A DNA stretch of 64,000 bases from Escherichia coli. GTDB lineage: Bacteria > Pseudomonadota > Gammaproteobacteria > Enterobacterales > Enterobacteriaceae. Below are positions 60,266 through 63,200 of the stretch, one piece after another (the first letter of the stretch is position 1; each line of letters starts with the position of its first letter). The position numbers and the translations under genes are program-made. A model generated the notes under the pieces. It did no database searches, was not told the origin of the DNA, and was given only the letters and a program-made list of their open reading frames with translations. The DNA is taken from assembly GCF_050920415.1 (NCBI RefSeq), contig NZ_CP169309.1; one strand, 5' to 3'.

Positions 60266-63200
60266 TCAACGAATACTGATGCCGGAAGCCGCTTTTTTGG
60301 TCACAATCACCGTACAGTCGGTGATATTGCCTGCCCCCTGATTGCCTTTCTGGAAAATCTTAAACTCCAGAGTGACGCTACCACCACCACTAGGCATATC
60401 AATAACTGCACTGTAACTACCGGGAATGGCCCCTTTAGTTTCTCTGGATGCGATTAATACGCCGTTTTTGCGAACTTCAAAACCATAACCCGTGTATCGC
60501 GTGCCTCCTGGGTTATTTCCGCTCCCCGGATCGTCATACGCTATACCGTTAAAAATAATGGGCGGAATAATAATCTGGCGGTCAAAGTTATGATCATCGC
60601 TGATGGTGACTGTAACCGTACCGTTTGGTGTTTCCGTGTTACCCCACGTACCGACTTTTTTCGGGAAGGCTTTTGATACAGCTTTAACGAAATCCCCTCT
60701 GACCTGGGTCGCCTCCAGCATGCCCTTAATCGTACAGTTTTCATTTACCGTGACATTGTTGAGCGTTCCTGAGTTCGCATTCACACTACCACTGATATCC
60801 GCATTTTTAGCGGTCAGCTTTCCGTCTGATGTCAGGGAAAATACCGGAGGACTGCCACCGCTGGTAATGGTGGGGGCTGTCAGGCGCTTCAGGAACACGT
60901 CGTTCATGAATATCTGGTTGCCCTGCGCCACAAACATCGGCGTTTCATTCCCGTTTGCCGGGTCAATAAACGCGATACGATTGGCGGCAACCAGAAACTG
61001 GCTCAGCTTGCCTTCCTCCGTGTCCTCCATGCTGAGGCCAATACCCGCGACATAATGTTTGCCGTCTTTGGTCTGCTCAATTTTGACGCCCCACATAGCA
61101 TTCCATTTATCGTTAGCGTCCTTCCACTCTTTCGAAAACTCATCCAGTCTGCTGGCGTTATCCTCCGTCAGGTCGACTTTTTCCAGCAGCTCTTTACCGA
61201 GATGGGATTCGGTTATCTTGCCTTTGAAAAAATCCAGGTAACCTTCCGCATCATCGCTCGCCCGACCGACGGCCTCCACGAATGCCGATTTGCCAACGGT
61301 GTTCACACTGCGGATATAAAAGTAATAATCATGGCCCGGTTTGATATTGATACTGGCGGCTATCCAGTACAGCCCCGTGCCAAGGTAGCGGGCTGTGGTT
61401 TCAACCTGCCTGATATCGGTAATCCGCGTTTCCGAGAACCAGAACTCAAACTGTACCGTCGGATCATAAACCGCAAGATGCGGCGTGGCGGTTATCTGAA
61501 AATAGCCCGGCGTCAGCTCAATCCGCGACGGCGCTGCCGGGGCGGCAATCCGGAACGATACCGACGCCGGATCGCCCTGCTGTCCCCGGGCATTTACCGC
61601 TCGGACCGTCAGCGTGTAACGCCCCAGCGTCAGTTGCCTGAAGCGGTAAGTGGTTTCCGTCGTCCGGGCCGTGCTGACCAGCCGCTCACTGCCGTCATCG
61701 GCGGCCACGGTCAGGCGAAGCATAAAGCTCACGCCCTTCACCACCTTCGGCGTATCCCAGCGCGCCAGCACCTGGTATTCCCCGCTGTCTGCGGTGACTT
61801 CGGCGGTCAGGTGCTGCACCGCTGGCGGCGTGACACCATTCACCGTGCCGCTCTGGTCGCCGTCAAAGTGCGCCCCGTTATCCACGATGGCTTCTTTTTC
61901 CGGTACATGCTGCACGGCGGTGATGGCATACGTGCCGTCGTCGTTCTCACGGATACTCACGCAGCGGAACAGGCGCTGGCGCAGCGTCGGCAGCTTCAGC
62001 CCCCACACGCTGTATTCAGCAACGCCGTCAGGAACACGGCTCACTTTCACCTTCACGCCGTCGGTGACGGACTGAACCTCCACGCTGACCGGATTGCCAC
62101 TTCCGTCAACCAGGCTTATCAGCGTGGTACCGGAGGATGGCAGCGTGATTTCACGGTCGAGCGTCAGCGTCCGGGTCTGGCTGTTTACCGCCAGCACGCG
62201 ACCACCGGTGCTGATACCGGCATAGTCATCATCGCAGATTTCAATGACATCGCCCGGTACATGGCGAAGCCCTTCAGCACCCACGCTGAAGTCCACGGTC
62301 TGCGTTTCCAGCAGTTCCGTTTTAATCAGCCACAGCCCGGCGCGGTGCGCCTGCCCCCGGCTGGTACAGCCAAAGGCATCCATCTTCGTGACGTTACGAC
62401 CGTAACGGGCAATGGCCTGCGCATCTTCAACAAGCTCTGTCGCCGTCTCCCAGCCGTTATCCGGGTCAATCCAGTTCACCTCAACGGCATTATGGCGGTC
62501 CTTCAGGGCGCTGAAACTGTAGCGGAACGGCGCGCCATCATCCGGCATCACCACATTACTGCGGTTATAGGTCCACACCTTATCTGATGGTCGGTCCTGC
62601 ACGAACGTCAGCGTCTGCCCGTTCCATACCGGCATACAGCGCATCGCCGAGCAGAAATCACTGAGCACATCCCACGCCTTACGCTGCGTGGTCAGGTAGG
62701 CATTACAGGTGATGCGCGGCTCCGTGCCGCCAAAACCGTCCGGCACTGACTGGTCGCAGTACTGGCCGATGACATACAGCGCCCATTTATCCACATCCGC
62801 CGCACCAAGACGTTTCCCCATGCCGTAGCGCGGATGGGTCAGCATATCCCACAGACACCAGGCCATGTTGTTGCTGTATGCCGGTTTAAACGTTCCGTCC
62901 CAGATACCGCTGTATTGCCGCGTCTGCGGGTTATAGTTCGACGGCACCTGCAGAATGCGCCCGCGCAGATGATAATTACGGCTCACCTGCTGGCTGCCGA
63001 ACTGCTCCGAATCCACCTGCACGCCGACCAGTGCCGTGTTCGGGTAGCCCTGTTTCACATCGATGATTTCGGTGTATGACGACCAGAGCGTTTTGTTCTG
63101 CAGCTGGTCTGTGGTGCTGTCCGGCGTCATCCTGCGCATCCGGATATTAAACGGGCGCGGCGGCAGGCTACCCACCACCACCGAGGCCAGATACTGCGAG

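Follow-up and report, generated by a model that had tools for sequence, protein, structure and literature searches.

A lambda-like J protein with a phage 434-type receptor-binding cassette in an Escherichia coli prophage

Introduction

Host specificity of phage lambda and its relatives is set by the C-terminus of the J protein (PMC11101478, PMC3509688). Upon binding of lambda gpJ to LamB the bases of the receptor-binding domains (RBDs) spread, the beta-prism fibre twists, the helical shaft flips and the tail tip opens (PMC11101478). When the J gene of phage 434 takes the place of lambda J the phage is redirected to OmpC, which phage 434 itself uses as receptor (PMC11101478, PMC3509688). The classical h434 host-range allele is carried by the hybrid phage lambda h434 imm21 (PMC9119081).

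The part of J in question has been delineated in a survey of 1207 J homologues. The 'specificity region' comprises aa 960-1132 of lambda J and contains four natural indel hotspots at positions 1012, 1048-49, 1077-78 and 1107 (Maddamsetti et al., 2018, PMC6646904). Receptor use within the family is easily shifted. The native receptor of phage 21 is LamB and a single J mutation enables use of OmpC (PMC11336670); in lambda four J mutations enable use of OmpF (PMC6646904). Of 23 OmpC variants, different subsets can be used by A8 and 1A2, two gpJ chimeras which target OmpC (PMC11338833).

Here, we present the J gene from a stretch of 64,000 nucleotides of E. coli DNA (contig NZ_CP169309.1, assembly GCF_050920415.1), henceforth the window. 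In a first-pass annotation, made from the sequence alone, a lambda-like J protein with a divergent C-terminus had been noticed, and alignments with lambda J and other lambdoid J proteins as well as a structure prediction of the C-terminal domain had been proposed.

The J gene and its domains

The J gene and the segments which are discussed below are the following:

60266..63679, minus strand: complete J gene (tail tip attachment/central tail fibre protein), 1137 aa plus stop codon, from the list of open reading frames
60788..63679, minus strand: lambda-like J body, codons 1-964, comprising the hub and FNIII/Ig domains, the helical shaft and the greater part of the central straight fibre, by identity to lambda J and 434 J
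60758..60868, minus strand: left seam, aa ~938-973, the last agreement of lambda-type and 434-type sequences in the mismatch map
60269..60787, minus strand: specificity region or receptor-binding cassette of phage 434 type, codons 965-1137, by identity to lambda versus 434, five indels and GC
60272..60679, minus strand: Ig-like C-terminal receptor-binding domain proper, aa 1001-1136, Pfam PF12421 Ig_GpJ_C

The family membership is clear. The NCBIfam model NF049904 (lambda_TipJ) covers aa 1-1137 with 2280 bits at a cut-off of 1950. From N- to C-terminus Pfam recognizes FNIII-A_GpJ, Phage-tail_3, Ig_J, Ig_J_second, Phage_Tail_Tip and Ig_GpJ_C, all six above their cut-offs and in the domain order of lambda J. 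The last of these, PF12421, is described as 'C-terminal receptor binding domain' and matches aa 1001-1136 with E=5.9e-25 and 88.4 bits (cut-off 26.2). The reading frame is unbroken and has exactly the length of 434 J (1137 aa). The J gene of E. coli D5 is identical and annotated as gpJ (WP_000515725.1). The D5 annotation and the open reading frames of the window place J behind the tape-measure gene and homologues of lambda M, L, K and I, and ahead of lom and stf.

Comparison with the J proteins of lambda and 434

A three-way MAFFT alignment was generated from the window J, lambda J (NC_001416, 1132 aa) and phage 434 J (OL657226, 1137 aa). Against lambda J, 934 of 964 residues are identical over aa 1-964 (96.9%), and only 73 of 179 positions over aa 965-1137 (40.8%). 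Against 434 J, the corresponding identities are 97.8% and 96.5% (167/173); over the whole protein 1110 of 1137 residues are identical to 434 J. The alignments which had been proposed thus bear out the first-pass annotation in its view that the 1137-aa protein follows lambda J over most of its length. A C-terminus essentially identical to that of lambda is not found. The difference was correctly placed at 60266-60800, but its length, given as about 150 aa, was too short; the divergent part comprises ~165-173 aa.

The transition is abrupt. Counted in blocks of 50 residues, 43-50 are identical to lambda throughout aa 1-950; then the number falls to 38, 21 and 14, with 13 in the final 43 columns. 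Three isolated substitutions in common with 434 precede the break, at aa 943, 946 and 951, and dense divergence runs from aa 974 (window ~60760) to the stop codon. At the DNA level the J body is 82-100% identical to lambda in blocks of 60 nt, with at least 90% in 43 of 48 blocks. Over the full length of the gene, DNA identity with the J genes of phage 434 and lambda h434 imm21 is 96.4-96.7%. Relative to lambda numbering, the window J has five indels, at 1011 (+2), 1043 (+6), 1078 (+1), 1099 (+2) and 1109-1114 (-6). They are located at the four published hotspots (PMC6646904) and all five are common to 434 J. Instead of near-identity to the LamB-binding type of aa 960-1132 one observes 40.8% identity together with these five indels. 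Divergence from lambda in the J C-terminus is far beyond chance.

A cassette exchange in J

The window J is a natural mosaic of a lambda-like body (aa 1 to ~964) and a 434-type cassette (aa ~965-1137). That the cassette was exchanged and did not drift is concluded from three observations taken together: the abrupt drop in identity, a shift in base composition and the bimodal distribution of identities among relatives. The GC content is 0.58 in the J body and 0.477 in the specificity region, whereas lambda's own specificity region has 0.548. When the last 177 aa of J were compared with phage genomes, 74 records showed 90-99% identity, 181 less than 60%, and none fell in between. A protein search with the J C-terminus likewise resulted in two modes, 90-99% and 35-48%; the sole intermediate is a truncated fragment. 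The stretch aa ~938-973 is the likely recombination junction.

One might argue that the J C-terminus drifted gradually from a lambda-like ancestor, that binding to LamB was retained and that the choice of receptor was unaffected. The RBD has the same fold as that of lambda, as detailed below, and 41% of the residues are in common. Further, phage 21 natively uses LamB, and if its J C-terminus differs from that of lambda, binding to LamB would extend beyond the lambda sequence type. Yet drift accounts neither for the sudden break in identity and the accompanying GC shift, nor for two modes of identity without intermediates, nor for indels at all four specificity hotspots. In addition, the nearly identical 434 allele is reported to act on OmpC, not on LamB. 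We consider drift with retention of LamB highly improbable.

The cassette itself is a very common allele of the h434 class, long known and named, and it adds no new divergence. The h434 allele class has been known since classical lambda/434 hybrid genetics. A 434-type J tip is ordinary: the exact protein is in RefSeq, and specificity region and indel hotspots have been surveyed before. Even the seam is familiar. At aa ~964-973 natural tips of this kind have already been grafted onto lambda J, which retargets lambda particles to OmpC (Brodel et al., PMC11338833).

Genes downstream of J

Downstream of J, i.e., at decreasing coordinates, the following genes are found:

59596..60195, minus strand: lom (Ail/Lom outer-membrane protein) of 434 type, Pfam Ail_Lom E=2e-123
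56571..59537, minus strand: side tail fibre gene, 988 aa, with lambda-like N-terminal domain, from the list of open reading frames and Pfam
55996..56571, minus strand: tail-fibre assembly gene
55308..55898, plus strand: Pin-type serine invertase gene, adjoining the tail-fibre assembly gene

The similarity to 434 continues beyond the J stop codon. From 60282 to ~59677, which comprises the J stop codon, the spacer and nearly all of lom, the DNA is 30-75% identical to lambda; at 59676 identity returns to 93%. Thus, the DNA does not resemble lambda again until the final ~26 codons of lom and the start of stf. Against 434, identity is 92-100% within lom and at least 82% across the J-lom spacer (60196-60265). 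We considered whether J tip and lom are one obligatory module. This is not the case: 434-type lom also follows J genes with other tips, and the DNA downstream of a few 434-type tips is different. In other phages the type of lom and that of the J tip are combined independently, and a junction lies close to the stop codon of J.

The middle of the side tail fibre is long and rich in Ala, Ser and Thr, with a GC content of 0.60-0.63 and a strongly negative AT skew. Between 57775 and 58170 it contains three tandem units of 132 nt (44 aa), and Pfam Phage_fiber_2 is matched three times. Long open reading frames in other frames over this gene, e.g., 58030..59034 on the plus strand (334 aa) and 58127..58693 on the minus strand (188 aa), look like by-products of the composition bias. 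No convincing inverted repeats which would flank an invertible tail-fibre segment were found next to the invertase gene. About 2 kb farther out (window ~53180-53392) the D5 annotation has a partial tail-fibre-assembly pseudogene; invertase and pseudogene are possibly what is left of an invertible tail-fibre switch, comparable to pinR in Rac. Towards the chromosomal flank, the invertase gene is followed by a region with a low GC content of 0.33-0.37 (54300-55300). In the D5 equivalent small genes are annotated as ydfK (cold shock) and members of the ynaM/ynfT family, which probably are prophage-end cargo.

Fold of the tip

An AlphaFold2 model was calculated for aa 960-1137 of J from an alignment of 39 sequences. 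With a mean pLDDT of 82.6 it is all-beta from aa ~998. In a Foldseek search against the PDB the best matches were exclusively gpJ tips, with a probability of 1.00, E ~2e-15 and query-normalised TM scores of 0.68-0.70. They comprise 9wcb and 9wca, i.e., A8 gpJ in the open state with OmpC of EDL933 and in the closed state, which are 47-48% identical to the window tip, and 8xcj and 8xck, i.e., lambda gpJ with LamB and in the closed state, at 42% identity. The structure prediction which had been proposed at the outset therefore yields the Ig-like beta-sandwich known from the solved RBDs of lambda and A8. The fold of the J tip is conserved, whereas the loops differ. Among solved structures a 434-type tip, alone or with OmpC, was found neither by sequence search nor by Foldseek against the PDB.

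The receptor

We propose that the receptor of the window tip is very probably OmpC and not LamB, based on the homology to phage 434 and on the lambda h434 hybrid. The first-pass annotation had expected a receptor specificity other than that of lambda, and homology favours this: the specificity region is 40.8% identical to lambda and 96.5% to 434 J, the allele to which the papers assign OmpC.

In lambda h434 imm21 (OM418627) the left crossover lies inside J at codon ~705-711; therefore, the host-range allele includes the region aa 965-1137. 434 DNA extends from this point through lom, stf and beyond. As a delimiter of the host-range determinant the hybrid is consistent with OmpC, but since it also brings in lom and stf of 434 it does not pin the determinant to aa 965-1137.

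In this reading, the central tail fibre ends in a trimeric receptor-binding domain of Ig-like fold, which is formed by the cassette at aa ~965-1137. The trimeric J tip would dock on the trimeric porin OmpC in place of the maltoporin LamB. Docking would then be expected to spread the three receptor-binding domains apart at their bases, whereupon the beta-prism central fibre would twist and the helical shaft flip, and the tail tip would open for DNA ejection. A triggering mechanism as in lambda is what we infer for the window J.

The main caveat for OmpC is that in this family receptor use shifts with one to four substitutions and that the window tip differs from 434 at six positions of the specificity region. 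From window to 434 these are V978I, E980Q, N1019D, I1108V, Q1110H and G1115R; three of the six adjoin the loop which is aligned with the lambda 1107 hotspot. The cassette could thus be of 434 type and the six substitutions could nevertheless shift or broaden its specificity, such that only certain OmpC alleles are used or an additional porin, e.g., OmpF. Several points speak for such a shift. N1019D, I1108V, Q1110H and G1115R fall at sites which are polymorphic within the 434-type cluster; these sites are close to the loops which correspond in the alignment to the lambda hotspots 1012 and 1107; the OmpC-targeting chimeras A8 and 1A2 use different OmpC variants (PMC11338833); and single J mutations alter receptor use of phage 21. 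However, at these four sites the window has the majority residues of the 434-type cluster, N1019 in 9/14, I1108 in 10/14, Q1110 in 10/14 and G1115 in 10/14. Hence it is the laboratory phage 434 which has the minority form there, and the window tip is the common form and no unusual derivative. At the two remaining sites, V978 is a minority residue (6/14) and E980 a narrow majority (8/14). With 96.5% identity to 434 over the entire region, a shifted or broadened specificity is possible but in our view doubtful.

Tentatively, N1019, I1108, Q1110 and G1115 might represent one state of a fine-scale arms race between 434-type tips and the highly polymorphic OmpC. If so, these loop residues would decide which OmpC alleles, and hence which E. 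coli lineages, can be infected by the prophage, and the specificity of the window tip would differ from that of laboratory 434.

OmpC remains our preferred receptor. For annotation this has a practical consequence: the predicted receptor of this prophage should be given as OmpC instead of LamB, as far as can be judged from homology. The literature which we searched contained nothing usable on the receptors of mEp460 or of the PhiR (ECOR) phages.

The prophage and the frequency of its tip

The window is a piece of E. coli chromosome. Its 10 kb from 54000 to 64000 are 100% identical in many E. coli isolates, including RM10466, D5, IBS28 and GE3. The window breaks off within the tail assembly gene beside J, the homologue of lambda I, and most of the prophage lies beyond it. 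In the annotation of D5 the J gene is part of a lambdoid prophage of full length, which occupies the argU/DLP12 site. Its genes comprise those for integrase, exo/bet/gam, N, a LexA-family (CI-type) repressor, cro, cII, homologues of O, P and Q, lysis, head and tail genes. Judged from the D5 annotation, with the D5 match covering window positions 54000-64000, the window prophage is apparently a complete lambdoid one.

DLP12 in K-12 is a defective prophage. The locus is the DLP12 site, and the gene names essD, rrrD, nohD and intD are present in the D5 annotation. Consequently, J could be the relic of a cryptic prophage and its receptor specificity without present biological importance. This is at odds with a J gene which is full length and in frame, with the D5 complement of integrase, recombination, immunity, replication, Q, lysis, head and tail genes next to only small pseudogene fragments, and with the 100% identity of 54000-64000 in many unrelated isolates. 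We regard a relic as unlikely.

Outside the window, the Q antiterminator and the lysis genes of the D5 prophage are separated by a porin gene (L005:22238-23335). It scores 526 bits with the NCBIfam OmpC subfamily at a cut-off of 484. It presumably corresponds in position to nmpC/lc of DLP12 and phage PA-2, where the phage porin lowers OmpC levels. Superinfection exclusion by a prophage porin which lowers OmpC would make sense in combination with a tip that targets OmpC.

How common is such a tip? Of 5426 complete E. coli genomes, 2112 contain DNA for the 434-type tip, which occurs at 2859 places and with up to 7 copies per genome. DNA for the lambda-type tip is present in 98 of these 5426 genomes and all copies are at least 99% identical; some of the listed matches are K-12 or laboratory-derived strains. 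We suspect that many of the remaining genomes with a lambda tip are lysogens of laboratory lambda or DE3. The 434-type tip thus is about twenty times commoner than lambda's own LamB-binding tip, which is the rarer form in complete E. coli genomes. What appears divergent from lambda is the common natural form.

Comparison with known systems

Lambda J (P03749; PDB 8iyk, 8xcj, 8xck) matches the window J in its body, its domain order and the Ig-like fold of its RBD. It differs in that it binds LamB, and its specificity region is set apart from that of the window by low identity and by five indels at known hotspots. The divergent block of the window coincides with the specificity region aa 960-1132 and adds nothing beyond the survey in which that region was defined (Maddamsetti et al., 2018).

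The A8 gpJ chimera (PDB 9wca and 9wcb, with OmpC of EDL933) shares the fold of the window tip, and 9wcb is its best structural match (E=2e-15). A8 is a tip of a different type (47% identity). The gpJ sequences of 1A2 and A8 were sought in the supplements of PMC11338833 with three exact strings of 21-24 nt from the window RBD, and no match was obtained. The RBDs of A8 gpJ and of phi330 J are only ~47-48% identical to that of the window and belong to another allele class, yet their proven receptor is OmpC (PMC11338833, PMC12502783). OmpC binding therefore arose in more than one type of J tip, and at least two or three distinct types which bind OmpC exist, i.e., 434, A8 and phi330 (PMC12502783).

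Closest of all is phage 434 (OL657226; lambda h434 imm21, OM418627). Its J has the same length and the same indels relative to lambda, and it is followed by a 434-type lom as in the window. The differences are a side tail fibre of 437 aa versus 988 aa in the window, and the six substitutions in the specificity region of J.
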